Source: Thermoanaerobaculia bacterium (GTDB taxonomy: Bacteria; Acidobacteriota; Thermoanaerobaculia; Multivoradales; Multivoraceae). Taken from it: 64,000 bases of DNA. The position numbers and the translations under genes were made by a program. Shown here one piece after another: positions 4,550-40,233 of the stretch; position 1 is the first letter of the stretch; each line of letters starts with the position of its first letter. The DNA lies in NCBI GenBank assembly GCA_963664405.1, contig OY761158.1, forward strand, positions 3,392,001 through 3,456,000, written 5' to 3'. The notes below the pieces were generated by a model, which was given only the letters and a program-made list of their open reading frames with translations, had not been told where the DNA came from and searched no databases.

Positions 4550-4715
4550 CTAGGCCAGCGTTTCTAAAGTTCGTGCTGCATAGCTCGAGGTCATTCTGTT
4601 CGCTGGCTAGGCGCGCTGACGCAGGCATATTAGGCAATATGTCGAGGAAGCGAAACGACGCCAGCGGGCAGAAGGGCCCGAGATATGTGCGCGAACCTTA
4701 GAAACGCTGGCCTAG
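4550..4715 (+). mobile_element. Family-A 166-bp hairpin element (MITE-like), CTAG-bounded
   Basis: Terminal inverted repeat CTAGGCCAGCGTTTCTAAAGTTCG / CGAACCTTAGAAACGCTGGCCTAG (23/24 match). Homologous to 40069 (inverted), 28796 and 11623. The right CTAG contains the stop codon of the pilin gene. Confidence 0.85.
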
Positions 4716-5353
4716 TTCGACCGCCACTTTTCGCTGTCGTGGTCGAATCGCATTACCCTCACCCGCCCGGTCCGGTTCGAGACCCGGACGGCGAATAACT
4801 CTCTCCGGCCGTCGGTAAGATAGAGGGTGCCAGGTGTCGCCCCACCTTCGGAGCTGAAAGACGCGATATCCGAGCGATTGAAACGGATGGGATCGTCGAG
4901 GCGGTCAAGGAGTCTCCCACTCGTGGGATGTGGCAGCGGCCCCCCGGGCGGGAACCCGAACCCCACTCCCCTACCGAGAGCGGTCAGCCGCCGTGGCGGC
5001 TGGGCAGGGGGGTCGACTCCCGAGTCGATGTCTCTTGTTCTCACGCCGTCACCGTCACCGTCACGATAGAGAGTGAAGGTCACCACGCCGTCTTCGAGGG
5101 TTCGAAACTTGGCGCCGACGTTGGCGCTGTGTCGAAGTGCGTAGATGCGCGACAGCCTGAGAGTAGTCGCCAGCTCGGCTGCGGCAAGCCTTACCCGGGC
5201 TCGGGAGGTCGTGCGAAAGAGGGAAGGCGCACCAACGACCCAGATCATTCCGACGACCGCGAGAGAGACCAGCAGCTGCACAAGCGAGAAACCGAGCTGG
5301 CGGCGGCCACGGCCGGAAAACGGGACTTCGACCCGCTCTCCGGCCCAGACCAA
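4712..5353 (-). CDS. FimT/GspH-like minor (pseudo)pilin
   Basis: Prepilin site RRQLG|FSLVQLLV followed by a hydrophobic helix. C-terminal GTLYL...GRVRV typical of FimT/GspH. Start uncertain. Confidence 0.75.
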   Translation of the reverse strand: MVWAGERVEVPFSGRGRRQLGFSLVQLLVSLAVVGMIWVVGAPSLFRTTSRARVRLAAAELATTLRLSRIYALRHSANVGAKFRTLEDGVVTFTLYRDGDGDGVRTRDIDSGVDPPAQPPRRLTALGRGVGFGFPPGGPLPHPTSGRLLDRLDDPIRFNRSDIASFSSEGGATPGTLYLTDGRRELFAVRVSNRTGRVRVMRFDHDSEKWRSN

Positions 5354-5381
5354 CCTAGGAACGGCTCGCCTGCTGAGCAGG

Positions 5382-5717
5382 CTAGTCCTCCTCTCGGTCG
5401 GGGGATGGGTTGGCTCTGACCTTTTCCTTCAAGGTCGTCTCGCCCGTGACCACGACAAAGGGCTCGATGTCATCGAACGTTCGATCTCCGATGCCGCGAA
5501 CGAGAATGAGCTCCTCGCTGCTCTTGAAGCCCTCGTTCGCGCCGCGAAAATCGATGATTCTCTTAGCGAGCGCTGGTCCAACTCCCGGCAGCAACGCGAG
5601 CTGCTGTTCGGTCGCGGTGTTGATATTCACCACTCCCTCAGCGGCAGAGACTAGGCTCGCCGCCAGAGCCGCGCAAAGAAAGAACAGCGCGACAGGCTTG
5701 AGGTTCAGCTTCTTCAT
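5382..5717 (-). CDS. comEA: ComEA family helix-hairpin-helix DNA-binding protein
   Basis: Signal peptide, then VNINTA...LPGVGPALAKRII...VRGIG. SD sequence GAGGAG upstream. Confidence 0.9.
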   Translation of the reverse strand: MKKLNLKPVALFFLCAALAASLVSAAEGVVNINTATEQQLALLPGVGPALAKRIIDFRGANEGFKSSEELILVRGIGDRTFDDIEPFVVVTGETTLKEKVRANPSPDREED

Positions 5718-5855
5718 AAATCTTGCTCCTCTTGGCTGGTTGTAGGGATACTCGGGGGTGCGAGAGCACCCCCGTTCCTCCGACTGCTTTGTCTTTCGGC
5801 TTACTTCTTCCGGTCAGGCACCTCCTCTCCTCGGGTTGATCATGGTCTTCCTTAC

Positions 5856-5872
5856 TACAAGCACTGTGCCAA
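5856..5872 (-). promoter_or_regulatory. Putative sigma-54 promoter for comEA-pilin
   Basis: Minus strand reads TTGGCACAGTGCTTGTA versus consensus TGGCAC-N5-TTGC(A/T), with one mismatch at -12. AT-rich IHF-like site at ~5890-5914. Confidence 0.55.
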
Positions 5873-6177
5873 CCCCGCGTCTTGGAGGCTAAACCTTGTT
5901 AATACAACGGTTTGAGAGAGATTTCCTAGGTTTTCTGGGTCCGCATCGGCGCAAATGATCTTGCGCGAACGCCGGGTCTTCTCGCCCGGGCAAGCAGACT
6001 CGTCAGCGGTGACGCGGGCCTAGCTCAGCGAAAATCTTCTTGGCGACAGCAAGAGTCTTTGCGCCATGGCCGATCGGCTCCGAGTCCCGCTTGAGCTTGC
6101 GGCGGCGAAACAGAGTCGGCTACACTGCCGAGTCGCTAGCATGGGCGGTCTAGCCGCTAGCGCTGCCTACGCCCCTC

Positions 6178-6882
6178 ATGTCGCAAGCCAAACGATCTGT
6201 GTTCCGCGAGTACTTCGAGGCCCTAGTGGTGGCGGGGCTTTTCCTCGGTTTCACTAATACGTTTGTGCTCAAGACGTTCTACATCCCCAGCGGGTCGATG
6301 GAAGACACCCTCCTCATCGGCGATCACCTATTCGTTAATCGCTACCTCTACGGCCCTACTACGACCAAGCTCGAGCAGGCGCTCTTCCCCTCGAGAAAGA
6401 TCCGTCGCGGAGACATCGTCATCTTCCGCTCTCCAGAGACTCCAGAGGTCGACCTGGTCAAGAGGTGCGTAGCGCTGCCTGGTGATGAGGTCGAAGTAAT
6501 CGACAAAGAGCTGTGGATCAACGGTGAGAAGGTAGAAGACTCGAGCTATGCCTCGAGAAGAGACCCTCGAGTCCTCCCCCGACGCTCTCGCTTCAGCAAG
6601 CAGACCATTCCACGCGACAACTACGGACCGCTTACGATCCCTGAGAGCAATTACTTCTGCATGGGCGACAACCGCGACCACTCGCACGACTCGCGTTTTT
6701 GGGGCACCCTTCCAGAGCACTACGTGAAGGGTCGAGCCTTCATGATCTATTGGTCCTACGGCGGCGGCACATCCGACGGCAACTGGTACGGCTGGGGAGA
6801 GCGGCTAAAACAGCTGGGAAAGACGACTCTGGGCTTCGCTACCAAGACTCGCTGGCGGCGCACGCTCAAGATCATCCGTTAG
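6178..6882 (+). CDS. lepB: Signal peptidase I
   Basis: IPSGSM (catalytic Ser), VKRC (Lys), GDNRDHSHDSRFWG. Confidence 0.95.
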   Translation: MSQAKRSVFREYFEALVVAGLFLGFTNTFVLKTFYIPSGSMEDTLLIGDHLFVNRYLYGPTTTKLEQALFPSRKIRRGDIVIFRSPETPEVDLVKRCVALPGDEVEVIDKELWINGEKVEDSSYASRRDPRVLPRRSRFSKQTIPRDNYGPLTIPESNYFCMGDNRDHSHDSRFWGTLPEHYVKGRAFMIYWSYGGGTSDGNWYGWGERLKQLGKTTLGFATKTRWRRTLKIIR

Positions 6883-6892
6883 GTGGATAAAG

Positions 6893-7558
6893 ATGCCGAG
6901 CGCTAGAGGGGTGGCTCGGATCTACTTGGAAGTATTGATCGTCACGCTGATGGCGGCGACTTTCGGCCGTACCTTCTTGGCCCAGGGCCTCCGTATCTCC
7001 AGCGGCTCGATGGAAGAAGCCCTTCTTGTCGGCGACCACGTGTTGGTCAATCGCTTCCTCTTTGCGCCGAGCGGCTCCCGCTACGCCGAGTCCTTCCTAC
7101 CCATCCGCTCTGCTCGCAGGGGCGAGATCGTCGTCCTGCGATTTCCGCAGGACCCTACGACGCTGTTCGTAAAGCGGTGCATCGGGCTGCCCGGCGAGCA
7201 GGTCGACATCGTCCGCGGTCGAGTGCTTATCGACGGCCTGGCTCTCGACGAATCAGCCTACCTCGACACCGCACCCACGATAACGGCAAAGGAGACGCCG
7301 TCTGGCGACTATTCAGTCCGAGTGCCGGATGATCACTTCTTCGTCCTCGGCGATCGCCGCGGCCATTCCTTCGATTCGAGGCACTGGGGCAGCGTGCCGG
7401 CCGCCTCTCTGGTGGGGAGGCCGATCTTCGTCTACTGGTCGTGGAACGAGCGCGCCCGCGACGTTGGGGAAACGCAGCCGCAGGGGCGTTTCGAGCGAGC
7501 TATTTCAGGCTTTTTAGGCGCTACGAGGTGGCGTCGAACCTTCTCGATCGTGAGATAG
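6893..7558 (+). CDS. lepB: Signal peptidase I, second paralog
   Basis: ISSGSM, VKRC, GDRRGHSFDSRHWG. Confidence 0.9.
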   Translation: MPSARGVARIYLEVLIVTLMAATFGRTFLAQGLRISSGSMEEALLVGDHVLVNRFLFAPSGSRYAESFLPIRSARRGEIVVLRFPQDPTTLFVKRCIGLPGEQVDIVRGRVLIDGLALDESAYLDTAPTITAKETPSGDYSVRVPDDHFFVLGDRRGHSFDSRHWGSVPAASLVGRPIFVYWSWNERARDVGETQPQGRFERAISGFLGATRWRRTFSIVR

Positions 7559-7644
7559 GGAACAGAGTTATGTAAGATAGTCTCTGCATGGAACGTCTAG
7601 CGAGGTCGCTGGCGCTCCTAGGCGAGCAGAGAGGAGCTTGAGCT

Positions 7645-8028
7645 ATGAAGACTTCAGACAATCCGAACTGGACCCGACAGAGAGGCGGAGCCAAGATCGG
7701 CACCCTCATCTGGCTGTTCATGTTCGTCGCCATCATCATTGTCGGTAAGGAAGCTATCCCGGTAAAGATGAGGAGCTCGCAGTTCGAGGACTACATGATC
7801 GAACAAGCGAAGTTCGCCGGGGGTCGGGGAGCCGAGTCGCTTCAAAGAGCCTTGTTGAACAAGGCGAACGAACTCGAAATACCGGTTGACAAGAAGACCT
7901 GTCGAGTCCGCAAGAGCAACGGACGGGTCAAAATGGACGCCGAGTACACGATCAGGCTCACATTCCCGTTCTACGAGTACGACTGGCACTTCGTGCACTA
8001 CGTCGATCGCCCGGTCTTTATCATCTAG
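7645..8028 (+). CDS. DUF4845-like single-pass membrane protein
   Basis: RQRGG followed by a TM helix. Lies downstream of lepB, as is typical for DUF4845. SD GAGGAG. Confidence 0.6.
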   Translation: MKTSDNPNWTRQRGGAKIGTLIWLFMFVAIIIVGKEAIPVKMRSSQFEDYMIEQAKFAGGRGAESLQRALLNKANELEIPVDKKTCRVRKSNGRVKMDAEYTIRLTFPFYEYDWHFVHYVDRPVFII

Positions 8029-8085
8029 CCCTAGCCGAGGTCGCGCCTCTGAGCTTCGGGGCCTTCCCGCCGCTGCGGGCCCGGG

Positions 8086-9015
8086 TCAGGTGTCGCTCGG
8101 CAGCTCGACGGCGCCGACCAGCTCGCTCACTTTGGCGATGCCGGATTCGCGAAGGTAGGACCTGAGGCCATCGAGAATTCGCTCCGGCGTGGCCGGGTCG
8201 CGGAAGAGTGCCGTGCCGATTTGTACCGCGCTCGCGCCCGCCAGCAGGAATTCGATGACATCGGAAGCCGTCTCGATACCTCCGATACCGATCACCGGAA
8301 GGCCGACCTTTCGAGCCACATCGAAAACGATCCGCAATGCGATGGGCTTGATCGCCGGTCCCGAGAGCCCGCCGCGGACGGTGTGCAACAACGGCCGCCG
8401 CGTGCCGGCATCGATCGCCATCCCCACGACCGTATTGATGCACGAGAGAATGTCGGCTCCCCCCTCCCTGGCGGCCTCCCCGAGCTCGTGCGGAGCCGCA
8501 ACATTGGGCGACAGCTTGACGATCAAGGGCTTCGTCGTTTCTTGCCGCACTGCGGCAACGAGCTTGGCGAGGATCTCGGGGTCGTGCCCGAACTCGATCC
8601 CCCCGCGGTCGACATTCGGACACGACACGTTGAGCTCGACGCCAGCGACCTCGGGTATGGGCTCGGCGCGGCGCGCGAGCTGGCGATACTCATCTATCGA
8701 AGTCCCGAAGAGGTTCAGGACCACGCGAGCGGGGTACTGACGCAACCCAGGCAAGACATCGACAAGAAAAGCCTCGATGCCGATATTCTGCAGACCGATC
8801 GAGTTGAGCATCCCGCCTCGGGTTTCGCAGATCCGCGGCCCGGGGTTTCCTTTCCGTGGCTCGAGCGACAGACCCTTGGTGACAATGCCGCCAAGCTTTG
8901 CTAGCGAGCCGAGGTGGGAGAACTCGAGCCCGTAGCCGAAGGTCCCGCTCGCCGTAAGCACCGGATTGGGCAGCTCGAGGGGCCCGACCCGAGTGGAAAG
9001 ATCCGGTTCGGTCAC
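8086..9015 (-). CDS. pyrD: Dihydroorotate dehydrogenase, class 1B catalytic subunit
   Basis: ASGTFG, NSIGLQN, NVSCPN, KLSPN, GGLSGPAIKP. GTG start overlaps the pyrK stop. Confidence 0.95.
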   Translation of the reverse strand: MTEPDLSTRVGPLELPNPVLTASGTFGYGLEFSHLGSLAKLGGIVTKGLSLEPRKGNPGPRICETRGGMLNSIGLQNIGIEAFLVDVLPGLRQYPARVVLNLFGTSIDEYRQLARRAEPIPEVAGVELNVSCPNVDRGGIEFGHDPEILAKLVAAVRQETTKPLIVKLSPNVAAPHELGEAAREGGADILSCINTVVGMAIDAGTRRPLLHTVRGGLSGPAIKPIALRIVFDVARKVGLPVIGIGGIETASDVIEFLLAGASAVQIGTALFRDPATPERILDGLRSYLRESGIAKVSELVGAVELPSDT

Positions 9016-9809
9016 CAACGCACCTCGTCGAAGCGAAAAACAGGGCCATCCTTGCAGCACAGAGCGAAGCGGCCGTCGACATGGGGAACCGCGCAACCCA
9101 AACAGGCGCCGTAGCCGCAACCCATCGGCGTCTCGAGCGCGGCCTCCCCTGCTACCCCATGGTCACGAGCGAGTCCGGCGAGTGCGGCCAGAAGGCCCAT
9201 CGGACCACACGCGTAAAGAAAACCATAAGCACCTTGCTCTAGCGCCTCGCCAAGGGGACCGGTCACCAGGCCCTCACGACCCTCGCTTCCATCCTCGGTG
9301 GTGACAATGCAACTCCCACCCGACGCCGTCGCCGCTTCCTCGAAATCGCTGCGGCAAGGTAGGTCGATGGACGACCGGCCGCCGTAGTAAAAATCGAAGG
9401 GAATTCGCCGATCGGCGAGCTGGCGACCCAGCAGAAGGAGTGCGGCCGAACCGACTCCTCCTGCGACCAGGGCCACCCGATCGTGAGGCTGGACCTCGAA
9501 CCCCCGGCCCAGCGGGCCCAGAACTCGCAAGATGCTCCCTGGAGAAGCTGTGGACAGAAGGTGGGTGCCGCGCCCGATGACCTTCCCGAGAAGGTCGATC
9601 TCCACTCGACTCCCCGCCACGCGTAGATCGTGCACCGAGAAGGGCCGTCGTAAATAGGGCTCGAGCCTCTCTCCGACCTCGACCATCACGAACTGGCCGG
9701 GCACAACCGGAAGGAAGTCTTCGGCGATCTCGAGGTGAAGAGTGAAATAGGGGAGAGGGTGGGGCTCGACCGAACTCACCGTCGCCCGGAGGTCGCGCAT
9801 CTGCTCCAA
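9012..9809 (-). CDS. pyrK: Dihydroorotate dehydrogenase electron transfer subunit
   Basis: LRRPFS, GPLGRGF, AGGVG, ACGP, and the 2Fe-2S motif CGYGACLGC...CKDGPVF. Confidence 0.93.
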   Translation of the reverse strand: MEQMRDLRATVSSVEPHPLPYFTLHLEIAEDFLPVVPGQFVMVEVGERLEPYLRRPFSVHDLRVAGSRVEIDLLGKVIGRGTHLLSTASPGSILRVLGPLGRGFEVQPHDRVALVAGGVGSAALLLLGRQLADRRIPFDFYYGGRSSIDLPCRSDFEEAATASGGSCIVTTEDGSEGREGLVTGPLGEALEQGAYGFLYACGPMGLLAALAGLARDHGVAGEAALETPMGCGYGACLGCAVPHVDGRFALCCKDGPVFRFDEVRW

Positions 9810-9854
9810 ACTTTAGCATGCAACATCCACGATCTCTGTCACAATCCGCTGGCG

Positions 9855-11609: not shown

Positions 11610-11622
11610 CAGATTGTCGTGC

Positions 11623-11683
11623 CTAGGACCAGCGTTCCAAAGTTCGTGCTGCATAGCTCGAGGTCATTCTGTTCGTTGGCTAG
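11623..11683 (+). mobile_element. Truncated family-A element (left arm only)
   Basis: CTAGGACCAGCGTTCCAAAGTTCGTGCTGCATAGCTCGAGGTCATTCTGTTCGTTGGCTAG aligns with 4550-4610 and ends at the internal CTAG. Confidence 0.8.
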
Positions 11684-11848
11684 GAGCCTGCGAAGCAGGC
11701 GAGTAGTTCTCAGGCGGGGATGGGCCGGAGAACGGGCCGAAGGCGCGTTTTCCGGGGCTAGGAGCGTGTCCGAGAATTCGGACAGGCGAGTAGTTCTCAG
11801 GCGGGGATGGGCCGGAAAACGGGCCGATGGCGCGTTTTCTGGGGCTAG
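11680..11848. repeat. Tandem family-B CTAG-bounded units (11680-11761, 11758-11848)
   Basis: Shared core CAGGCGAGTAGTTCTCAGGCGGGGATGGGCCGGARAACGGGCCGAWGGCGCGTTTTCYGGGGCTAG. The last CTAG contains the parB stop codon. Confidence 0.85.
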
Positions 11849-12789
11849 GGCTCCGCGGCTGGATTGATCGGATCCGAACCCTGGTTCTCTGACGACGGAG
11901 CATCCGCCGCGGGAAGGCGCTCGACCGCTTCAGCCAAAAGGCGATCGAACAAGCGGATCAACTCTTCCTCCGAATGAAAATGGATGCGCAGACTCCCACC
12001 TCTCTTGGATCTGCGGATCTCGACTCGCGTCTGCAGCGCCCGAGTCAACTTTTCTTCGGCTGCCGTCGTGTGAACGTCATTGCGCAAGGCGCGGCCCTTA
12101 CTTGCCCGTGAGGACCCGGCTGCCCCGGCTCTCACCAACGCCTCCACGCGACGCGCGCTCAAACCCTCTTTGACCGCCCGCTCCGCAACCTCGACCTGAC
12201 TCGACGGAGAGGCCAGGGCAAGCAGGGGCCTCGCCTGCCCTGCGCTGAGTCTCCCCGCACGCAGCAGGTCTTGGACGCTCGCCGGTAGACGGAGCAGCCT
12301 CAATGTATTCGTGATCGTCGAGCGCGCCCTCCCCACCTGCTCCGAGATCTGATCCTGAGTCAGCTGGAACCGGTCCGAAAGGCTGCGGTAGGCCTCGGCT
12401 TCCTCGATCGAGTTGAGATCCGCTCTTTGAAGATTCTCCACGAGTGCAAGCTCCAGCGACGCCTGATCGCTGGCAACCTCGCGCACAATCGCGGGAACCT
12501 CGGCGAGGCCGCACTTCTGTGCCGCCCTCCAACGGCGTTCGCCTGCAATGATGGTGAAACTCCCATCCGCTCGAGCAGAAACAATCAACGGTTGAATCAC
12601 GCCCTGGGACCGAATTGAGCTTGCAAGCTCCTCCAGTCCCTCCTCATCAAAGCTGGATCGAGGTTGGAAGCGATTGGGGACAAGCCTGGTGACCGGAATC
12701 TTCTCTACCGCCGCTGCCCCTGCTCGGGTCGGAGTTGCTTCTCCGTCACCGAGAATCGCATCCAAACCTCTCCCAAGTCCTTTACGCAT
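11845..12789 (-). CDS. parB: Chromosome partitioning protein ParB
   Basis: GLGRGL, QPR, GERRWRA, ENLQRADL, helix-turn-helix. Confidence 0.96.
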   Translation of the reverse strand: MRKGLGRGLDAILGDGEATPTRAGAAAVEKIPVTRLVPNRFQPRSSFDEEGLEELASSIRSQGVIQPLIVSARADGSFTIIAGERRWRAAQKCGLAEVPAIVREVASDQASLELALVENLQRADLNSIEEAEAYRSLSDRFQLTQDQISEQVGRARSTITNTLRLLRLPASVQDLLRAGRLSAGQARPLLALASPSSQVEVAERAVKEGLSARRVEALVRAGAAGSSRASKGRALRNDVHTTAAEEKLTRALQTRVEIRRSKRGGSLRIHFHSEEELIRLFDRLLAEAVERLPAADAPSSENQGSDPINPAAEP

Positions 12790-12807
12790 AGTTATTTACC
12801 CCATTCT

Positions 12808-13548: not shown

Positions 13549-13682
13549 ATGCTGTGTCTCCGCCCCGATATCGACAAGGTCATTCCGACGGGGCCCCAGT
13601 ATTGGGCCGCACACGTCGTCAAGGCCTCTTTACTCCATCCTGTCATGCTGGCGCATGTGCGTCTCGAGAGTCAACAGTCCAT

Positions 13683-14327
13683 CTATCTAGACTCCGACCG
13701 TCCGAACATCAACAGCTGTCTGTGCTTCGAGCCGGCAACCGGCACACGCTCGAGAAGGCGCAGAGATTGCGGAAGCGGAGGCGCCTCGAGGCCGGCCCAG
13801 ATCAGGACGCGCCCTTGTTCGGAGAGGCACGACTCGAGGAGGCCCCAAGTCTCGAGTGGTAGGCGAACGGCCCTCACCGTAATCAGATCCGCCAGCTCCT
13901 CCTCCATTACGGCGGGCAAAGACGGCCCGAGGCGCTCGTTGATGCACGCCACCGAGACCCCGCCCGCCCTTGCCGCAGACCTCAAGAACGCCCACTTCGC
14001 CTGTCGCGACTCGATCAGCAGCACGGACAAATCGGCGCGGGCGGCTGCAAGAACAAGACCTGGAAACCCACCGCCAGACCCAACATCCACAACTCTCGCC
14101 CCAATCGGTACCAAAGGCAGACCCTGCAAAGACTCCCCGAAATGGCGCTCCGGAGTTTCCTGCAGTGTGCCGGGCCCCACCAGTGAAAGGCGACGATTCC
14201 AACGCAGAAGCTCTTGGTAATGGGCGTAGAGCGCCGTCGCGACCCTGTCTGACAGACAAAGGTTTGCCGCTCGTCCAACTCGGACGGCGAACTCCTCGAG
14301 TGAGAGTGTCTGTTGTGGATGTTTCAC
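13683..14327 (-). CDS. rsmG: 16S rRNA m7G527 methyltransferase
   Basis: WNRRLSL, RHFGES, DVGSGGGFPG, ES..K..FL, VRAV. Conserved position upstream of parA. Confidence 0.9.
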   Translation of the reverse strand: MKHPQQTLSLEEFAVRVGRAANLCLSDRVATALYAHYQELLRWNRRLSLVGPGTLQETPERHFGESLQGLPLVPIGARVVDVGSGGGFPGLVLAAARADLSVLLIESRQAKWAFLRSAARAGGVSVACINERLGPSLPAVMEEELADLITVRAVRLPLETWGLLESCLSEQGRVLIWAGLEAPPLPQSLRLLERVPVAGSKHRQLLMFGRSESR

Positions 14328-14335
14328 GTGAAACG
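14320..14335. other. parS site 1 (overlaps rsmG start)
   Basis: TGTTTCACGTGAAACG, 15/16 match to the TGTTTCACGTGAAACA consensus. Confidence 0.9.
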
Positions 14336-14488
14336 CCGTCTCGACGTTGGCGACAAACTATCACTCGTAGACCCGACGCCAGGCCCTGGCCGACGCGAGC
14401 TCCACCCATCATCACGCTCCTATCCAGCGAAGCACCCAGTACCCGCCCCGGGGCCTAGAATTCCTCGAGCGAGGGTGTCCGTTGCGGA

Positions 14489-14504
14489 TGTTTCACGTGA
14501 AACG
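14489..14504. other. parS site 2
   Basis: TGTTTCACGTGAAACG within a ~44-bp direct repeat of the site-1 region. Confidence 0.9.
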
Positions 14505-14533
14505 CCCGACGGCCGGCCCACGCACGAAGACTC

Positions 14534-17982: not shown

Positions 17983-18072
17983 TGGCGGAGAGGGTGGGAT
18001 TCGAACCCACGGATCGCGTAAACGATCAACGGTTTTCGAGACCGCCCCGTTCGACCACTCTGGCACCTCTCC
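17983..18072 (-). tRNA. tRNA-Ser(CGA)
   Basis: GGAGAGG acceptor stem, GCGGT-CT-CGA-AA-ACCGT anticodon arm, long variable arm, GGTTCGAATCC, encoded CCA. Confidence 0.96.
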
Positions 18073-18111: not shown

Positions 18112-18202
<91 letters not shown>

Positions 18203-18813: not shown

Positions 18814-18817
18814 GCCG

Positions 18818-18960
18818 GGTGGGGAGCCCCCCGTGAAGGGTTCGGGCCCTGTGCGTTGAGGGGCTCCGAACCTCGTCAGGCCCGGAAGGGAGCAGCGATA
18901 AGGTGTTCTCCTCGAGCGCCGCAGTTTCAGCCGGAACCCTTCACGCGAGGCTCCTGCACC
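18818..18960 (+). ncRNA. ffs: Signal recognition particle RNA (4.5S)
   Basis: GTCAGGCCCGGAAGGGAGCAGC domain IV motif inside a long stem (GGAGCC..CGTGAAGGGTTC / GAACCCTTCACG..GGCTCC). Sits upstream of dnaX. Confidence 0.93.
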
Positions 18961-27698: not shown

Positions 27699-28799
27699 AT
27701 GGAGCTTCGGTGTAATCGCAGTATTCTGCTCAACGAGCTAGGGCCGATGCAAGGAGTAGTGGAGCGTAAGACCACAATCCCAGTCCTCTCCCACATCTTG
27801 TTGACCGCCCGCGACCAGCAGCTACATATCGCGGCGACAGACCTGGACGTGTCGCTGACATCTTCTTGCGAGGCCGAAGTCGCGCAAGAAGGGGGTATCG
27901 CTATCCAGGCGAGGAAGTTCCTCGAGATCATCCGTTCTCTCGCTGGTGAGGAGGTCCATCTTCTCCAGGAAGACCCGAATATCCTGAGTATCCATGCGAT
28001 GCAATCGCGCTTCAAGCTCAATGGGCTTGCGCCTGAGGACTTTCCGACCCTTCCCGAAGCAGCTTCGGGAGACACTCTCGAGCTACCCTTCGCAGAGTTT
28101 CGAAGAATGATCTCGAAGATCATCTTCGCGGTCTCGGCGGAGGAGTCTAGGTTCCAGCTCAACGGTGCGCTGCTGTTGGAAAAGGACGGTTCCTTCGAGA
28201 TGGTCGCTACCGACGGTCACCGTCTGGCTCTGGTCGAGATCGCTCAAGAGGGCGCGTCGGCAAAGGAGGGTGTGTTGGTACCGCGCAAAGCCCTGCAGGA
28301 GCTCCAGCGCTTCGAGAGCGACGGGAATCTCGAGTTCTCGAGAGGGGAGCATCACCTCTCTTTTCGAGTGGGTCGCCGAGAGTTGATCTGTCGAATTCTG
28401 GAGGGGACCTTTCCCGACCACGAGCGTGCCATCGCCAAGGATAACGACAAGAAGGCTATATTCGACGCTCGGGCGCTGGCGTCGACGACCCAGCGCGTAG
28501 CTCTTCTCACAGGCGATCGGGCTCGCGCCATTCGCTTGCAGATGGGTCCTGACCTACTGGTGGTTTCAACCGCCAATCCGGATCTGGGAGAAGCCGTTGA
28601 GGAAGTTGCCTGTGAGTATCCCGGAGGGGAAGAGTTCCGGCTCGGCGTCAACCCGGACTATCTCTCCCAGTTTCTTGCGGCGGTGGAGACCGAAAAGGTG
28701 CGCTTCGAGTTCAAGGACGAGAATAGCCAGTGTGTTGGCTATCCGATCGATGGAGAGGACACCCGTTACCTCTGCGTCATCATGCCGATGAGGATCTAG
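27699..28799 (+). CDS. dnaN: DNA polymerase III beta clamp
   Basis: TIPVLSHI, ATDLD, ATDGHRL, IMPMR. Confidence 0.97.
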   Translation: MELRCNRSILLNELGPMQGVVERKTTIPVLSHILLTARDQQLHIAATDLDVSLTSSCEAEVAQEGGIAIQARKFLEIIRSLAGEEVHLLQEDPNILSIHAMQSRFKLNGLAPEDFPTLPEAASGDTLELPFAEFRRMISKIIFAVSAEESRFQLNGALLLEKDGSFEMVATDGHRLALVEIAQEGASAKEGVLVPRKALQELQRFESDGNLEFSRGEHHLSFRVGRRELICRILEGTFPDHERAIAKDNDKKAIFDARALASTTQRVALLTGDRARAIRLQMGPDLLVVSTANPDLGEAVEEVACEYPGGEEFRLGVNPDYLSQFLAAVETEKVRFEFKDENSQCVGYPIDGEDTRYLCVIMPMRI

Positions 28800-28961
28800 T
28801 GCCGTGTCTCCGACATGGCTTACCAATATCTCGGCCCCTTTAGCCCGCTGCCGTCGTCGCGACTCGTCGACATATTCCCAATATGCCTGCCTCGTCGCTC
28901 CTTGACAGCGAATAAAATGACCTCGAGCTCTTGGCAAGCCATGTCGGAGACACAACACTAG
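28796..28961 (-). mobile_element. Family-A 166-bp hairpin element with different terminal arms, between dnaN and recF
   Basis: 31-bp TIR CTAGTGCCGTGTCTCCGACATGGCTTACCAA / TTGGCAAGCCATGTCGGAGACACAACACTAG with 3 mismatches, all G-T on the minus strand. Core homologous to 40069. The left CTAG contains the dnaN stop. Confidence 0.8.
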
Positions 28962-30186: not shown

Positions 30187-32658
<2,472 letters not shown>

Positions 32659-32682
32659 GGCCGCAAGTCCCCGGTCGCTACG

Positions 32683-35196: not shown

Positions 35197-35234
35197 TGAA
35201 GCTTCTACGACTAGGGGTATGAGGAGGGTGCTGC

Positions 35235-35888
35235 GTGCTGTTCTTTCTTGACACCGCCAAGATCTCGGAGATCGAGCAAGGTCTGGAATGGGGAATGGTG
35301 GACGGTGTCACGACGAATCCGACGCTGATAGCGAAAGAAGGAAAAGACTACCTCGATACGGTGGTCGAGGTCGCCAAACTGGTTCCCGGTCCGGTCAGCG
35401 GCGAGGTTCTCGCAACCGAGTACGCGCCGATGATGGAGGAGGCCAAGCGCCTCGCCGGCCTGGCGGAGAATGTGGTGGTGAAGGTACCGTTGGGGCCGGT
35501 AGGCCTGCGAGCGGTGGGTCATCTGCGCGAGCAAGGGATCTCGACCAATGTGACGCTCTGCTTTTCGACCGCCCAGGCTCTCCTTGCTGCCAAGGCCGGC
35601 GCCGGGTATATCTCGCCCTTTATCGGCCGCCTCGATGACCTGGGCCAGGACGGAATGGGCCTGATCGAAGACATCGTGCAGATGTACGACAACTACGACT
35701 TCGAGACCCAAGTGCTTGTTGCATCCGTACGGCACCCGGTGCACGTGGTTCGGTCTGCTCTCCTGGGTGCGGACGTCGCGACCCTGCCGTTCAAGGTGCT
35801 GCAGCAGCTCTATGGCCACCCACTTACGGACAAGGGGCTCGCGGGCTTTCTGGCGGATTGGGAGGCGACGGGCGTTAGCGCCTTCTGA
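35235..35888 (+). CDS. tal: Transaldolase (MipB/TalC family)
   Basis: FLDTA, GVTTNPT, VKVP. SGEV (Glu) and SPF (Phe) favour transaldolase over FSA, which has Gln/Tyr. Confidence 0.88.
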
Positions 35889-35895
35889 GGCGCTC

Positions 35896-36474
35896 TTGAG
35901 CGGCGAAAACGACGAGGCGTCCCCCTCGTTTCGGTTGTACCAGCTAGCGTGGGCTTTCTATCTGGTCCTCGGTCTCCTAGGGGCTTTGTGGATCGGCATC
36001 CGCGAAGGTACGATCGAGAGCGCACTCTTCGCGAGCCCGTCCTCCTGGCTGCGAGACCTCGTGGTCGGGGTCTTGTCGGGCGGCGCTCTCATTGGCCTTT
36101 GGGAGGGATTAGGGCGACGTCTGGCTTTGGGCCGGGAGCTTGAGCAGCGTCTTCGCGGTCTGCTGGGACATCTCGACGCATCGGAGGCGATCGGCCTTGC
36201 GGTGCTCTCGGGCTTTGCCGAGGAGCTGTTCTTTCGGGGCGCTGTGCAAGGTAGCTTCGGCTACCTTGTCGCATCACTGCTTTTTGCCGCTCTTCATTCG
36301 GGCAGAGAGCGGAGCTTCATGCTGTGGACCGCCTTCGCGCTTATCGCGGGTCTACTCTTCGGCGGCCTGGTACTGTGGGCGGGAAATCTACTTCCCGCGA
36401 TCGTCGGGCATGTCATGGTGAATGCGGTGAACCTGCGGCGTCTCACAGCATTGCCGGAGGGAGAGGTTGATTGA
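35896..36474 (+). CDS. CPBP/Abi family intramembrane metalloprotease
   Basis: EELFFRG, FAALH, H..VN, multiple TM helices. TTG start inferred. Confidence 0.85.
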   Translation: MSGENDEASPSFRLYQLAWAFYLVLGLLGALWIGIREGTIESALFASPSSWLRDLVVGVLSGGALIGLWEGLGRRLALGRELEQRLRGLLGHLDASEAIGLAVLSGFAEELFFRGAVQGSFGYLVASLLFAALHSGRERSFMLWTAFALIAGLLFGGLVLWAGNLLPAIVGHVMVNAVNLRRLTALPEGEVD

Positions 36475-37013
36475 GCGACGAGAAAGAGCTCAAGTTTGCG
36501 GTGGTAGGCGACGTGGAGGAGTTGCGCCGGCGGCTAGTTGAGGTTGGCGCGAAAGAGTCCAGCGTTCCGAGTGAAGAGAATAATTGGGTTTTTGACCGCC
36601 ACGCCGAGCTCTATTCCGCCAGTCGACTCCTGCGTTTGCGCAGCGACGGGCAGGGCGGACACCTCACCTACAAGGGGCCGCCTCGCTTTGAAGGGGGGCT
36701 CAAGGTGCGCGAAGAGATCGAAGTCGATGTCGACGATGTTGAAGCGACTCGCGATCTTCTGGTGCGCCTCGGCTACCGCGTTGTTCGTCGTTACCAGAAG
36801 ATTCGGCAGGAATGGCGCCTCGATAGCACGGTAGTCGCGGTGGACCTCACCCCTATCGGGCTCTTCGTCGAGTTTGAAGGGGAGGATGCGCCGGTCTCGG
36901 CCAAGCAATGTGGCTTTGACCCAGAACAGGCGGAAAAGCGCTCTTACCTCAGGCTCTACGAAGAGCATCGGCGGGAGCACCCGCACCTGCCTCCAGATAT
37001 GGTCTTCCCCTGA
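36471..37013 (+). CDS. CYTH (class IV adenylate cyclase-like) protein
   Basis: EKELKF (ExExK), LRLR, LTYKG, REEIE, FVEFEG, SYL. Confidence 0.88.
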   Translation: MSDEKELKFAVVGDVEELRRRLVEVGAKESSVPSEENNWVFDRHAELYSASRLLRLRSDGQGGHLTYKGPPRFEGGLKVREEIEVDVDDVEATRDLLVRLGYRVVRRYQKIRQEWRLDSTVVAVDLTPIGLFVEFEGEDAPVSAKQCGFDPEQAEKRSYLRLYEEHRREHPHLPPDMVFP

Positions 37014-38047
37014 TGGCGCCGCTACGGCTGCGAGCGCTGGTTCTCTGCGCCGGCCGGGCGACGCGTTTTCGCCCTCTCACCACTGGGGTTCCCAAGGCAC
37101 TCCTTCCGGTCCTCGGCCGACCCCTGCTCGGGGTTACGCTCGAGCAGCTCCTCGAGGCGGGCGTCGAGGCGGTTGCGATCAATCTCCATCACCAGGGTGA
37201 GGCAATCGCCTCGACTCTGGGAAGCTCCTATCGAGGAATACCTCTCCGCTACTCACGAGAGAATCTGCTGCTCGGAACGCTAGGCGCGGTTAATCCCCTG
37301 AAGGAGTTTCTCGGTGAGGCGGATCTGGTCCTCCTGGTCAACGGCGACAGCCTGTGCAGGTGGCCGATCGAGGCGATGGTAGAGCGTCATCGGAGCGTCG
37401 AAAGTGAGGCGACACTATTGTTGAGCTCTGTCGCCGATGTCGAGTCCTTCGGCGGAGTGGGAATCGATGACAACGAGCAGATCGTGTCCTTCCCTGGTGG
37501 CCCATGCTCCCCTAGAGAGACGCGGCAGCTCGTTTTTGCCGGCGCGCACATCTTCGACCCCGAGCTACTTCGGAGGGTGCGACCCGGTGCCTCCGACAGC
37601 GTCGTGGATCTCTATCGCCCGATGGTCGAGGCCGGTGGGCAGTTGCAGGCCTTTGTGAGTGACCAGCAGTGGCATGACCTGGGCAACCCACACCGTTACC
37701 TCAAGGCTTTACTGGAGTGGATGCGGAGCACGGACGGTAGCTCGGAAGACCGAAGCTGGTTCGGCCGAGGTGCGTCGGTAGATCCTGCAGCTCAGGTAGT
37801 TGGCTCGATCATCGAGGCGGGTGCCACCGTCGCCGCCGGCGCGCGGTTGACCGAGTGCGTGGTCCTCAACGACGCCGAGGTCGGAGTCGGCGCACAGCTC
37901 GAACGATGTCTTTTGGCCCCGGACGTAGTCCTGGGTCGAGGGACCCGAGTGGCAGGCGAGATGGTCACGCCTTTTGCTTGGGGTTTGGTGGATGGCTCCC
38001 GTCGGGTTGGCGCTCTTGTTCATACACCGCTATCAGGGCGGGCATGA
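37013..38047 (+). CDS. Sugar-phosphate nucleotidyltransferase with C-terminal hexapeptide repeats
   Basis: LCAGRATRFRPLT...PKALLP, NGD, WHDLG. Confidence 0.85.
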   Translation: MAPLRLRALVLCAGRATRFRPLTTGVPKALLPVLGRPLLGVTLEQLLEAGVEAVAINLHHQGEAIASTLGSSYRGIPLRYSRENLLLGTLGAVNPLKEFLGEADLVLLVNGDSLCRWPIEAMVERHRSVESEATLLLSSVADVESFGGVGIDDNEQIVSFPGGPCSPRETRQLVFAGAHIFDPELLRRVRPGASDSVVDLYRPMVEAGGQLQAFVSDQQWHDLGNPHRYLKALLEWMRSTDGSSEDRSWFGRGASVDPAAQVVGSIIEAGATVAAGARLTECVVLNDAEVGVGAQLERCLLAPDVVLGRGTRVAGEMVTPFAWGLVDGSRRVGALVHTPLSGRA

Positions 38048-38616
38048 GCGCGTCGGTGACCCTCTACTGCTGGCTCGTTGCCGCAGTCGCCGCCGAGCGC
38101 GGGTTCGAGCTCGTCTTATCGCGTCGAAATCTGCGCTGGGCGGCACAGAAAGGGGGCGTCGAGAGAGGAGCCGGACACTATCGATGGATGGTTCTTTCGC
38201 ACACCGGGCTGCTCTTGGCTTGCCCCTTGGAGGTATGGCTCCTGGAGCGCCCCTTCCTGTCCGTGGTCGGGGTTCCGGCCCTCGTGTTGCTGGTGGTTTC
38301 GATGAGCCTTCGCTATTGGGCAGTGGTCTCGCTTGGAAGGAGGTGGAATACACGAGTGGTGGTGGTACCGGGGGTTCCAGTCGTGACCAGCGGGCCATAC
38401 CGGTTCTTGCGTCACCCCAACTATCTCGCTGTTGTTCTGGAAGTCGCGGCCCTGCCACTGGTACACAGCGCATGGGTGACAGCTGTCGTGTTCACGATCC
38501 TCAATGGCTTGATTCTGCGCACCAGGCTCCGGGTCGAGGAATCCACACTTCGGGAGCTAGCCGACTACGAGACGGCGATGAAGGGAAGGTCGAGTTTGTT
38601 ACCGGGGGCAGGGTGA
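38044..38616 (+). CDS. Isoprenylcysteine carboxyl methyltransferase family (SrsB/BpsB-like)
   Basis: ER..EL.LSRRN, LG.RWNTRV, GPYRFLRHPNY, R.RVEE. Confidence 0.88.
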   Translation: MSASVTLYCWLVAAVAAERGFELVLSRRNLRWAAQKGGVERGAGHYRWMVLSHTGLLLACPLEVWLLERPFLSVVGVPALVLLVVSMSLRYWAVVSLGRRWNTRVVVVPGVPVVTSGPYRFLRHPNYLAVVLEVAALPLVHSAWVTAVVFTILNGLILRTRLRVEESTLRELADYETAMKGRSSLLPGAG

Positions 38617-39749
38617 CGGCCGGCTGCGACGTCGTCGTGATCGGCGGCGGCCCGGCAGGCCTGGCGACAGCGATTGCAGCAGGCCGTCAAGGACTTCGAG
38701 TAGAGGTCCTCGAACGTTTCCAGACTCCTATCGACAAGCCCTGCGGCGAGGGTCTGTTGCCGAGCGGGTTGGCGGCTTTGGAGGCCCTGGGGGTCAACGC
38801 CGCCGAGCTTCCGAGTCGAGAGCTCGAAGGAATTCGCTATGTCGATGGGGAGACGGTCGCCGAAGGGCCGTTTTGCAGTAGGTTGGGGAGGGGGATTCGT
38901 CGCCTGGTTCTGCACGAAGCTCTTGCCGGGAGGGCGGAAGAGGTTGGTGCTCGCCTAAGCTGGGGCGTGACCGTCAAGGGGATCGAGTCGGTGGGTGACC
39001 GTTGGTCGGTCGCGACCTCGGAAGACCGCCGGGAGGCGCGTTGGCTGGTTGGAGCCGACGGCCTCAGCTCTCGTGTTCGCGAGTGGTCGGGTTTGTCGGG
39101 CCGGCCCGCCAAGCGGCAGCGCTTCGGAGCTCGCCGCCATTATCGACTGGCTCCCTGGTCGAGCTTTGTCGAGGTCTACTGGAGAGAGGGCTGCGAAGCT
39201 TATGTGACCCCGGTAGACGACGATCTCGTTGGGGTGGCGCTGCTGTGGAGTGGTCGCAGCGGCGGGTTCGACTTCTTGCTCGAGGGCTTTCCCGAGCTTG
39301 CGGCGAGGCTTGCCGGCGCCACCAAGGCATCGCGAACGCGAGGTTGTGGACCTCTCCGTCGTCGCACTCGGCATGTGGTGGGTAAGAACTTGGCGCTGGT
39401 CGGTGATGCTTCGGGGTATACGGACGCCCTCACCGGCGAAGGTCTAGGGCTCGCTTTTCAGCAAGGCTTGGCTTTGGCCAAGGGGTTGGCTAGGGGAAGT
39501 GTTCGCTATTACCCGCGAGAACACCGTCGCATAGGTCGGGCAGTTCGCGCGATGACCGAGCTCACACTCCTTCTCTCTCGCTCACCCGCCTTACGCCGAC
39601 GCGTGATCGACGCTTTGCGAGCTCAACCGGCACTCTTCACCCGCCTGCTCGCCACCCAAGACCGAGAGGCCCCACTGCTGGGTACGGGAGTGCCAACGCT
39701 CGTAGAGCTTGCGCTGAGGACTCTTGTCTCGAAGCCCGAGAGAGGCTGA
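38613..39749 (+). CDS. FAD-dependent oxidoreductase (SrsC-like flavoprotein)
   Basis: GGGPAG, DKPCGEGL, GADG..S, VGDASGYTDALTGEG. Confidence 0.85.
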   Translation: MTAGCDVVVIGGGPAGLATAIAAGRQGLRVEVLERFQTPIDKPCGEGLLPSGLAALEALGVNAAELPSRELEGIRYVDGETVAEGPFCSRLGRGIRRLVLHEALAGRAEEVGARLSWGVTVKGIESVGDRWSVATSEDRREARWLVGADGLSSRVREWSGLSGRPAKRQRFGARRHYRLAPWSSFVEVYWREGCEAYVTPVDDDLVGVALLWSGRSGGFDFLLEGFPELAARLAGATKASRTRGCGPLRRRTRHVVGKNLALVGDASGYTDALTGEGLGLAFQQGLALAKGLARGSVRYYPREHRRIGRAVRAMTELTLLLSRSPALRRRVIDALRAQPALFTRLLATQDREAPLLGTGVPTLVELALRTLVSKPERG

Positions 39750-39768
39750 GACTCGGTAGGTGAGACCG

Positions 39769-40068
39769 GCCCTCGGTCAGGGGCTGGTGATCATCAGCGG
39801 CGGCATCGACCTCTCGGTGGGCGCGACTGTCGGCCTGGGTCCCGACCACCCCGCCTTCGTCGAGGCCGGCTCGGGCTCGTTGTATACGCCATCGCCGCCG
39901 TCGTACTCGGAGGCTGCTCGCTGCGCGGCGGTGTCGGCACAGTGTCGGGTATCCTTGTCGGTGCGGCTCTGATGCGTCTGATTACCAACGGTATTAATCT
40001 TCTCGGCATCAGCACACACTGGGAGCTCACCGTTATCGGGCTCGTTATCGCAGCGGCGGCAGTGCTCA
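39769..40068 (+). pseudogene. Collapsed sugar (RbsC-type) ABC permease remnant
   Basis: ALGQGLVIISGGIDLSVG in one frame. YAIAAVVLGGCSLRGGVG...NGINLLG...VIGLVI in another. The middle is missing and the end is cut by a family-A element. Confidence 0.8.
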
Positions 40069-40233
40069 CTAGACCAGTGTTTCCAAAGTTCGCGCACATA
40101 TCTCGGCCCCTTCTGCCCGCTGGCGGCGTTTCGCCTCCTCGACATATTGCCCAATATGCCTGCGTCGGCGCGCCTGGCCAGCGAACAGAATGAGCTCGAG
40201 CTATGTACACGAATTTTGGAAACGCTGGTCTAG
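40069..40233 (-). mobile_element. Family-A 165-bp hairpin element (inverted relative to 4550)
   Basis: CTAGACCAGTGTTTCCAAAGTTCG...CGAATTTTGGAAACGCTGGTCTAG. Its reverse complement aligns full-length with 4550-4715. Confidence 0.85.

Follow-up and report, generated by a model that had tools for sequence, protein, structure and literature searches.

The window, a 64,000-nucleotide stretch of a Thermoanaerobaculia bacterium contig, contains three full copies (A, B and C) and one partial copy (H) of a CTAG-bounded repeat of 165–166 bp. Their coordinates, sizes and ends, as given in a preliminary description of this DNA, were confirmed. Two further full copies, D and E, are present at an Acidobacteriota MAG locus (L006), where they lie in opposite orientations with 193 nt between them. 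In total, five full copies and one partial copy occupy six unrelated loci (three and a half in the window and two at L006), and all copies are intergenic. The better-folding, G-rich strand of each element is hereafter referred to as the S strand.

4550..4715, plus strand: copy A, 166 bp, A-type arms, S strand plus
28796..28961, minus strand: copy B, 166 bp, B-type arms, S strand minus
40069..40233, minus strand: copy C, 165 bp, A-type arms, S strand minus
11623..11683, plus strand: partial copy H, left arm and part of the core, A-type, nearest to A
L006 9929-10094: copy E, B-type arms, 97.6% identical to B

CTAG stands at both ends of all five full copies, and similarity between copies stops exactly there, the 20-nt flanks matching at 4–10 of 20 positions. 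All five boundaries read C-TA-[G...C]-TA-G, which fits a TA duplication and a 4-bp CTAG duplication equally. The elements are non-coding, with stops in most frames of a six-frame translation, and are rare in public protein predictions (3 element-derived matches among 1.84 billion representatives). Only 4 of 166 positions separate B from E, whose flanks are unrelated, indicating recent spread. The partial copy spans from a CTAG to an internal CTAG that is carried by A and H only. Its identity to A's left part is 92.4% across 66 nt and 88.8% across 80 nt, and a weaker resemblance to A extends to 11700; its right half is missing and a repeat of another family follows. Scored as a whole element, H reaches only 14.4 bits; copy A reaches 169 bits on the plus strand and 76 on the minus strand.

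The right CTAG of A (4712-4715) contains the TAG stop of a minus-strand ORF (4712-5353), for which only a weak GspH-like match was obtained (E 0.0018). B separates dnaN from recF: the dnaN TAG stop (28797-28799) is part of its left CTAG, and directly after its right CTAG comes the ribosome-binding stretch of recF. C lies just after apparent transporter permease fragments, and 11 nt separate it from the ATG (40245) of a downstream CDGSH/4Fe-4S gene. A neighbour's TAG stop is thus found in two of the six boundary CTAGs of the three full window copies, and also at two boundaries of the second repeat family described below. Removing the element and one CTAG in silico yields natural-looking junctions, for example the dnaN TAG followed by the recF ribosome-binding stretch. 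Relative to the neighbouring genes, the S strand of B and C is antisense on either side, that of A and H has the same sense as the upstream gene, and D and E show a mixed arrangement. Read on the S strand, the 4 nt preceding the left CTAG are pyrimidines at 17 of 20 positions, and the right flank shows no mirror image (purines at 8 of 20), a pattern that was noticed post hoc.

The second CTAG-bounded family (F2) is unrelated to the 165-bp family and is represented in the window as follows.

11680..11849, plus strand: F2 tandem of two units (83 and 92 nt), head to tail, with one CTAG in common
56491..56582, plus strand: F2 unit between ruvB and ruvA, 97% identical to 11758-11849, not of the 165-bp family
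5300..5385, minus strand: diverged F2 unit in inverted orientation (71 nt, 80%)

The tandem occupies the place of the missing half of H, and its last CTAG (11845-11848) holds the parB TAG stop. The CTAG of the diverged unit (5382-5385) holds the TAG stop of an HHH_3 (ComEA-like) gene (5382-5717). F2 is without terminal inverted repeats, has hairpins near both ends and folds better on one strand (-43.5 versus -31.6).

Fold, arms and strand asymmetry

Each full copy folds into a single end-to-end rod of 69 pairs around a CATATT-loop-AATATG stem, and 95% of the cells of the alignment are paired. The full-length hairpin put forward previously is confirmed for each copy by minimum free energies (MFEs) of -71 to -108 kcal/mol, versus -40 to -53 for 100 mononucleotide shuffles each (z -8 to -14). 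For half-units alone the fold is no more stable than in shuffles (z -0.6 to -2.1).

A and the reverse complement of C are 90.4% identical over 166 nt; B shares with them a core of about 105 nt only, at 82–84% identity. The terminal arms of A (27 nt) are 93% complementary and those of B (38 nt) are 87% complementary to each other, and just inside the CTAGs 10–12 of 12 nt are paired in all five copies. The preliminary description had the copy at 28796 keeping the core while exchanging its outer arm for a different, still paired one. This holds for the copy itself, but not as a one-off exchange: because the arm of B recurs in the L006 copy at 97.6%, the elements form two subfamilies with a common core of about 100 nt and unrelated self-complementary terminal arms (A, C and D versus B and E). 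Nor is the pattern the reverse of that of ordinary MITEs, as had been supposed, given that the terminal repeats of A, C and D are conserved like the core (paired positions among the first 12 nt: 12, 11 and 12).

The four compensatory pairs named at the outset all exist (columns 5/163, G-C versus A-T; 16/152, T-A versus C-G; 41/128, G-C versus C-G; and 68/100, T-A versus C-G). The other three copies have a G.G mismatch at 41/128, so that A and C would each have mended a mismatch by a different single change. Between A and C, 4 compensated pairs occur among 15 differences, where random substitution gives 0.23 (P ~5e-5, 20,000 simulations), and comparing A-type with B-type copies over the core only gives 4–5 compensated pairs (P <=5e-4). 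Changes on both sides affect 21 pairs, versus 13.1 +/- 2.0 in 500 shuffles (0 of 500 reach 21) and 0–7 when the partners are slid; these counts come from only five sequences, and a large share of them traces to the one difference in arms between the subfamilies. On the shuffle and pairwise tests over these five sequences, pairing is kept by compensatory change beyond chance, as had been proposed. The compensated changes are mostly transitions on both sides. C and D show 16 differences, with 14 pairs changed on one side and 0 compensated, and the 4 differences between B and E are all one-sided, suggesting that landed copies decay one arm at a time.

Non-Watson–Crick oppositions common to at least two copies are all G.U or purine–purine on one strand. 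Shared pair positions comprise 10 G.U versus 0 A.C, and changes private to one copy comprise 3 G.U versus 5 A.C. The conserved internal-loop oppositions are all purine–purine, on the same strand as the shared G.U. At least ten non-Watson–Crick oppositions (3 G.U together with G.A, A.G and tandem GA/AG) are identical in all five copies; the cores of the two subfamilies differ by about 17%. The S strand has a G-C skew of +0.11 to +0.22 and folds better by 17–32 kcal/mol with RNA parameters and by 9–13 with DNA parameters. RNA MFEs are -106.7 on the plus versus -87.0 on the minus strand for A, -102.5 on the minus versus -70.8 on the plus strand for B, and -107.9 on the minus versus -89.7 on the plus strand for C. 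This asymmetry travels with the element, whatever its orientation to the neighbouring genes. To the left of the replication origin, where the plus strand of the genome is C-rich, the element's G-rich S strand is nevertheless the plus one; replication mutation bias therefore does not explain the asymmetry. The strand-specific non-canonical positions fit a constraint acting on one single strand. Selection on a single-stranded rod, of ssDNA or RNA, had been suggested previously: the excess of compensation and the strand-specific non-canonical pairs agree with it, and it is from these that we infer selection rather than a mutational process.

Database searches and described systems

The window had been said to hold no cognate enzyme, and this is borne out by a Pfam scan of its 55 ORFs of at least 100 aa. 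No transposase, recombinase or HUH (Y1, RAYT) gene was found among these and 20 ORFs of L006 of the same minimum length (84 kb in all), and no autonomous element with the same ends was found in the 84 kb examined. Rfam returned only the SRP RNA and two tRNAs for the whole window, with no family at gathering score on the repeats. At a relaxed threshold the best matches were 28.5 bits on A (gathering 90) and 18.3 bits on B (gathering 61), and the sub-threshold matches on both were to long plant microRNA precursors. Against plasmids, a 40-nt A-type end (from copy C) gave chance-level matches only, with the terminus uncovered, and the B-type end gave none; no plasmid or phage match to the element was found. 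A scan of 4300-5500, the sole region covered, gave no promoter-like site.

MITEPsy1 of Pseudomonas syringae is a 100-nt IS5-related MITE that duplicates CTAG or YTAA (PMC3189936), and IS630/Tc1-mariner elements duplicate TA, with IS630 itself favouring a TA inside CTAG (PMC2170065, whose reference list includes a title on IS630 transposition to TA within 5'-CTAG-3'). As these elements are described in the passages available, the 165-bp family resembles them in being small, non-coding and dispersed, with terminal inverted repeats, CTAG on both sides and a transposase that would act in trans. It differs in its two unrelated termini on one core and in having no known parent insertion sequence. 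The MITEPsy1 terminal repeat as printed in PMC3189936 resembles, by eye, neither arm type, and a whole-165-bp rod with strand-specific non-canonical pairs is not described in the available passages of PMC3189936 and PMC2170065.

A full-length hairpin with compensation, initially taken to be unusual, is already known for MITE-like repeats and REPINs (PMC3184786, PMC3116915). ERIC, Correia/nemis, Chunjie and bcr1 are intergenic repeats of 100–235 bp with long stable stem-loops; Chunjie folds at about -98 to -130 kcal/mol, bcr1 is reported to retain its structure via compensatory changes, and several such long-hairpin repeats are co-transcribed with neighbouring genes (PMC3184786). The same source, in the part available, sets them apart by flanking repeats of TA (ERIC), 9 bp (Chunjie) and 5 bp (bcr1), versus CTAG here, and describes arm-swapped subfamilies for none of the four.

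REPINs are non-autonomous palindromic units predicted to form one hairpin in ssDNA or mRNA, in which compensatory changes are common, and a single-copy RAYT tyrosine transposase lies elsewhere in the genome (PMC3116915). Each is made up of a pair of short REP palindromes whose tag is of the GTAG or CGTC type (PMC3733652); one example has 71 bp between two conserved ends, and the element here is about twice as long (PMC3116915). We rejected a REPIN/REP–RAYT architecture, taken as two palindromes of 20–40 bp, each folding and each with a GTAG- or CGTC-type tag, for the 165-bp family, in which the halves do not fold alone and CTAG is the tag at both ends. PATEs of haloarchaea, which derive from IS200/IS605-type elements, are short and strand-polar, carry no transposase and have a 4–5 nt 5' targeting sequence and palindromes near their ends (PMC3119063). 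They are described there as being without terminal inverted repeats, and the 165-bp family, with 27–38 nt of these, therefore does not fit; the PATE assignment was rejected for it. F2, with hairpins near its ends and no terminal inverted repeats, matches the PATE layout fairly well (PMC3119063).

Probable mobility of the 165-bp family and alternative readings

The 165-bp repeats are probably non-autonomous, non-coding mobile elements of the MITE class that insert at CTAG. They are small and have no transposase coding, they have terminal inverted repeats, and their dispersed copies lie in unrelated flanks. The element would be a new family; long-hairpin MITEs, REPINs and CTAG-targeting MITEs are already described. 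Integration would occur at the palindromic tetranucleotide CTAG and leave CTAG on both sides, whether all 4 bp of CTAG are duplicated (the pattern of IS5-type MITEs) or only the TA within it (IS630-type). Because C+TAG is often the stop of a gene and would be remade on insertion, such insertions may be tolerated. The transposase would be supplied in trans from outside the window. In lineages that go on propagating, the entire element would stay able to fold into one rod on a given strand, and copies, once landed, would lose pairing one arm at a time. If this reading holds, the family is a clean natural case of a bacterial miniature element constrained by the fold of one strand, which suggests that its life cycle passes through a single-stranded stage, as ssDNA or RNA. 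Stop-codon CTAGs remade on insertion would also make a safe landing niche, allowing an element to lodge between essential genes (dnaN and recF, for example).

Some observations sit less easily with a MITE. A transposase that recognises terminal sequence is hard to reconcile with two subfamilies that have core and target in common but unrelated termini, and a transposase acting on dsDNA gives no reason for a strand-specific fold. F2, being CTAG-bounded without terminal inverted repeats, would not be moved by a classical DDE enzyme. An alternative, which we regard as unlikely, is that the elements move as ssDNA by means of an IS200/IS605-like or RAYT-like HUH (Y1) enzyme or some other structure-reading enzyme. 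CTAG would then be both cleavage site and target, the left one being the target and the right one the element's own end, with no duplication, and the enzyme would read the folded strand and CTAG, not the terminal sequence. In line with this, unrelated arms are tolerated provided that they pair. The strand-specific non-canonical positions, the better fold of the S strand also with DNA parameters, and an asymmetry independent of gene orientation and not caused by replication mutation bias all argue in this direction, as does the post hoc difference between pyrimidines before the left CTAG (17/20) and purines in the right flank (8/20). Further likenesses are the PATE-like layout of F2, CTAG-bounded with a one-strand fold and a tandem on one CTAG (PMC3119063), and the common compensatory changes in the long hairpin of REPINs (PMC3116915). 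However, the long terminal inverted repeats pair mutually, with no separate hairpin per end, and half-units do not fold alone; D and E lie in opposite orientations 193 nt apart, and the 84 kb yielded no Y1/HUH gene. REP-family tags are moreover GTAG and CGTC, and CTAG appears 0 times in the text of PMC3733652. A wider proposal, to which we give little credence, is a CTAG- and strand-specific mobilisation system in an uncultured lineage of Acidobacteriota that reads a folded strand and the tetranucleotide, not a terminal sequence, and moves a set of hairpin modules. The set could comprise 165-nt rods with interchangeable arms, 87–92-nt three-hairpin units without terminal repeats and 40–54-nt mini-hairpins, which together would form mosaic intergenic arrays joined at common CTAGs. 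Such a lifestyle would resemble that of REP/RAYT or IS605 but use a new tag and cargo architecture, and an undescribed enzyme might drive it.

The pairing could in principle be kept with no single-strand constraint. In quasipalindrome-templated mutation, template switching while the DNA is replicated or repaired transfers a change in one arm to its partner. The compensated pairs are just what such arm-to-arm copying would yield, are mostly transitions on both sides and come from five sequences only, yet we find this explanation improbable. Frequent correction should have erased the non-Watson–Crick oppositions that persist in all five copies, copy D has piled up one-sided changes without correction, and template switching has no reason to spare only G.U and purine–purine oppositions on one strand. 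It is very unlikely that the repeats serve chiefly as genes for structured RNA or as cis-regulatory RNA modules (an sRNA, an mRNA stabiliser or a processing site) that have spread through the genome, with the rod as the functional product. In its favour, structured RNA typically shows G.U pairs and tandem G.A oppositions on one strand, the rod has a very stable fold, every copy is intergenic, and ERIC and bcr1 are reported to be active at the RNA level (PMC3184786). However, the S strand is not consistently the sense strand of the neighbours, 4300-5500 gave no promoter-like site and no Rfam family matched, and CTAG on both sides together with terminal inverted repeats are features of insertion. 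Of practical concern, the repeats cause spurious ORFs and false C-terminal extensions in MAG annotation (for example P0002 and the tail of P0003), and they can break assemblies.

Copies, subfamilies and distribution

The hairpin repeat is present in the window as three full copies (A, B and C) and one partial copy (H), and as two further full copies (D and E) in L006, a locus of an Acidobacteriota MAG (contig CAXWPL010000005.1).

Copies of the 165-bp repeat (S, the better-folding, G-rich strand of each copy)
4550-4715, S on plus strand: copy A, 166 bp, A-type arms, CTAG at start and end
28796-28961, S on minus strand: copy B, 166 bp, B-type arms, CTAG at start and end
40069-40233, S on minus strand: copy C, 165 bp, A-type arms, CTAG at start and end
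From 11623, S on plus strand: partial copy H, similar to the left portion of A (identity of 92% across 66 nt, or of 89% across 80 nt)
L006 9570-9735, S on plus strand: copy D, A-type arms, 85-89% identity to A and C
L006 9929-10094, S on minus strand: copy E, B-type arms, 97.6% identity to B

The three full copies lie where the preliminary description placed them (4550, 28796 and 40069), with the CTAG ends that it reported, and the half copy at 11623 is likewise present and resembles the left portion of A. C, taken as its reverse complement, matches A over the full length (90.4% identity). Similarity of B to A and C is limited to the central ~105 nt (82-84%); the outer 38 nt on each side of B are unrelated to the arms of A and C, yet are 87% complementary to each other (the arms of A are complementary at 93% over 27 nt). 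The 28796 copy had been described as carrying a different, still paired outer arm. Both the difference and the pairing hold, but the arm is not a one-off exchange: E, 97.6% identical to B, carries it too, and the B-type arm thus defines a second subfamily. Apart from the copies, L006 and the window have one other small repeat in common and nothing more, so D and E sit at different loci from the window copies. They are oppositely oriented, and a short open frame that begins at 9741, within the 193 nt between them (L006 9736-9928), runs into E; it may be a small gene or a remnant.

The window (62% G+C) lies around the replication origin of a bacterial chromosome, with parB, parA, yidC, dnaA, dnaN, recF, gyrB and gyrA and a cumulative GC skew minimum at 26-28 kb. 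By Pfam, none of 55 window and 20 L006 ORFs (at least 100 aa) encodes a transposase, a recombinase or an HUH domain, in agreement with the earlier remark that no cognate enzyme lies in the window. The sole IS-named match, IstB_IS21, falls inside DnaA, owing to the AAA+ fold in common. An Rfam search had also been proposed; the element matches no family there at the gathering threshold, and sub-threshold matches on A and B, the two copies scanned, are to long hairpins only.

Further copies were sought in several ways. A genome scan with a loose pattern (18 fixed bases plus a single variable gap) returned at least 46 loci; among the matches listed, L006 alone is related to the element by blastn, and the 45 others listed show no likeness outside the pattern and are mostly of 35-55% G+C. 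The five full copies were also combined in a covariance model, which, with filters off, detected no additional member in the 84 kb of window and L006; the best non-copy score, 15.9 bits, falls on the SRP RNA region. Whole-element blastn gave no match in plasmids (A and B queried) or phages (B only), and the 40-nt element ends gave either chance-level plasmid matches that omit the terminus or none. In protein space, one open frame of copy C, searched against 1.84 billion representatives, yielded six matches at E <=0.001. We read three as element-derived: P0002, a spurious-looking ORF of 230 aa; P0003, of 340 aa, whose tail enters an element and which carries precomputed Pfam matches to PF04321, PF13460 and PF01370 (epimerase/NAD-binding families); and P0007, which is 48% identical and has diverged arms. 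The other three (33-45% identity in 6-20 matched stretches, proteins of 421-1658 aa) are probably repetitive proteins. A word-index search for longer proteins led back to the same two element-derived proteins, each on one contig. The family therefore occurs elsewhere but is rare in public protein predictions.

Fold, compensatory change and strand asymmetry

Every copy folds end to end as one rod, with a minimum free energy (MFE) of -71 to -108 kcal/mol; shuffle controls reach -40 to -53 kcal/mol (100 simple shuffles per copy; z -8 to -14). RNAalifold places 69 nested pairs on the five-sequence alignment, and standard pairs occupy 95% of the cells of this structure. Pairs changed on both sides number 21, compared with 13.1 +/- 2.0 in 500 shuffles, none of which reaches 21, and fall to 0-7 once the partner columns are offset by 1-3 positions. 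A large share of the 21 is the one arm difference between the subfamilies; sequence pairs were therefore tested separately, with an equal number of substitutions placed at random, the covariation resting on five full sequences.

A and C differ at 15 positions, and 4 pairs are compensated where 0.23 would be expected (P about 5e-5); these are the four compensatory pairs of the preliminary description. In the core, A-type and B-type copies differ by 4-5 compensated pairs (P 5e-4 or less), at alignment columns 47/122, 57/112, 67/101 and 71/97 and, for A, additionally 68/100. C and D differ at 16 positions, with no compensated pair and 14 pairs altered on one side only, and all four differences between B and E are one-sided. 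Compensated change is thus a mark of the lineages that founded the subfamilies, and individual landed copies decay. At pair 41/128, D, B and E have G.G, A has G-C and C has C-G, so that the mismatch was repaired twice, by two different single changes, in A and in C.

The fold is strand-specific, an observation that is new here and absent from the preliminary description. Each copy scores 165-177 bits with the covariance model on one strand and 61-76 bits on the other. S, which is the plus strand in A, H and D and the minus strand in B, C and E, folds at -93 to -108 kcal/mol with RNA parameters (complement, -68 to -90) and at -49 to -59 with DNA parameters (complement, -36 to -50). S folds better because the non-Watson-Crick positions are one-sided: among pair positions common to at least two copies, G.U occurs at 10 and A.C at none, whereas private changes of single copies are roughly even (3 G.U versus 5 A.C). 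Every conserved opposition in the internal loops sets purine against purine on S; examples are G.A at 34/134, A.G at 44/125 and a tandem GA/AG at 69-70/98-99.

The G-C skew of S is +0.11 to +0.22. Left of the switch in skew, where the surrounding plus strand is C-rich, S is the plus strand; right of it S is the minus strand, again the locally C-rich one. The G-richness of S in the window copies is thus not accounted for by replication mutation bias, which was rejected as its source. All four window copies flip orientation across the skew minimum at 26-28 kb, although four of four is not significant, and the L006 pair, 193 nt apart, is oppositely oriented.

CTAG boundaries and neighbouring repeats

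Similarity between copies stops at CTAG, the 20-nt flanks agreeing at only 4-10 of 20 positions. Deletion of the element with one CTAG leaves plausible junctions; for B, the reconstructed site has the dnaN TAG stop followed directly by the recF ribosome-binding stretch. This TAG lies within the boundary CTAG of B, as does the stop of the minus-strand ORF 4712-5353 within that of A, and the TAG stops of parB and a ComEA-like gene lie within boundary CTAGs of a second repeat family, F2. From the boundaries we infer a target-site duplication at CTAG; they fit equally well a duplication of all 4 bp of CTAG or of the TA within it. On S, the four bases 5' of the left CTAG are pyrimidines at 17 of 20 positions in the five full copies, a post hoc count that is due in part to the ribosome-binding stretches of genes lying downstream on the opposite strand; the right flank has no mirror pattern (purines at 8 of 20, counted likewise post hoc over four bases in the five full copies). 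C abuts the last of two short open frames at 39760-40070. By eye these read as pieces of a sugar ABC-transporter permease, so a degraded gene may lie at the insertion site of C.

Other CTAG-bounded repeats in the window
11680-11762 and 11758-11849: tandem F2 units with one CTAG in common, in place of the missing half of H
56491-56582: F2 unit
About 5300-5385, minus strand: F2 unit, inverted and diverged
1079-1174: third module, CTAG-bounded, beginning like F2
1171-1224: CTAG-bounded mini-hairpin, after the module at 1079-1174

F2 units (83-92 nt) are CTAG-bounded, lack terminal inverted repeats and are unrelated to the 165-bp family. Their G-rich strand (G-C skew +0.35) forms three hairpins (MFE -43.5 versus -31.6 kcal/mol), the first of which exists in at least two unrelated versions with pairing kept; one tandem is head-to-tail. 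This layout resembles that of IS605-derived palindrome-associated elements. The module and mini-hairpin (1079-1224) recur at L006 15571-15671: 65 nt of the module (1110-1174) match L006 15607-15671 at 91%, and the adjoining L006 15571-15610 is a 40-nt perfect CTAG-to-CTAG hairpin, with the same AT-rich core as the window mini-hairpin and different outer bases. CTAG itself is under-represented in the window (102 sites versus 222 expected from base composition), and small repeats that make up <2% of it account for about 18 of these sites, within them or at their ends. With several repeats bounded in this way, CTAG serves generally to join small repeats in this genome.

Related elements and mode of movement

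A long hairpin over the full length counts as a classic trait of MITEs, and compensatory changes are reported for bcr1 (review PMC3184786) and for REPINs (PMC3116915). Unlike those of a REPIN, the halves of the 165-bp element have no fold of their own, and a REP doublet was rejected on this ground; the tag is CTAG, whereas REPIN tags are GTAG or CGTC (PMC3733652). Unlike PATE, the family has terminal inverted repeats. In literature searches of main texts, no palindromic repeat of ~165 bp bounded by CTAG was described, in Acidobacteria or elsewhere; PMC8841776, seemingly on topic, has MITEs in its reference list only. Integron attC sites were rejected by eye (no core-site-like ends or cassette array, and both orientations occur). 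Intrinsic terminators were rejected as well: no T-run follows the rod, and a scan of 4300-5500 placed no terminator-like site at 4550-4715. The arm-swapped subfamilies and the strand-specific non-canonical pairs are the unusual traits of the family, and worth genome-wide study.

On balance we favour, with reservations, a MITE-class non-autonomous element that would insert at CTAG and be mobilised in trans, because of the terminal inverted repeats, the identical short flanks, the dispersed near-identical copies and precedent. Duplication of CTAG or YTAA is reported for MITEPsy1 in a passage of PMC3189936; part of PMC2170065 gives TA as the duplication of IS630 elements, and a title among its references names TA within CTAG for IS630. 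Three features are left unexplained by an enzyme that cuts and pastes double-stranded DNA: the strand-specific fold, the tolerance of unrelated arms and the CTAG ends of F2, which has no terminal repeats. They keep alive, as an unlikely alternative, movement as single-stranded DNA by an HUH-type enzyme.

Pairing might also be kept by templated correction, with no selection on the fold. The conserved mismatches, unchanged across subfamilies whose cores are ~17% apart, argue against frequent arm-to-arm correction; this account is improbable. That the repeats serve primarily as RNA is very improbable: S does not run consistently in the sense direction of neighbouring genes, and the case for a role as cis-RNA is weaker for it.

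Several features of the window were seen beside the repeats. Adjacent minus-strand tRNA genes (17986-18072 and 18116-18202) contain an identical 30-nt stretch, and a plus-strand bacterial small SRP RNA (18840-18940, 65.7 bits) lies just downstream of them. Close to where an R3H-domain gene region ends there is a 49-nt direct repeat (14289-14337 and 14458-14506; 90%, units 169 nt apart), and tandem signal peptidase I (Peptidase_S26) paralogues (6178-6882 and 6893-7558) are 81% alike over a 67-nt stretch.
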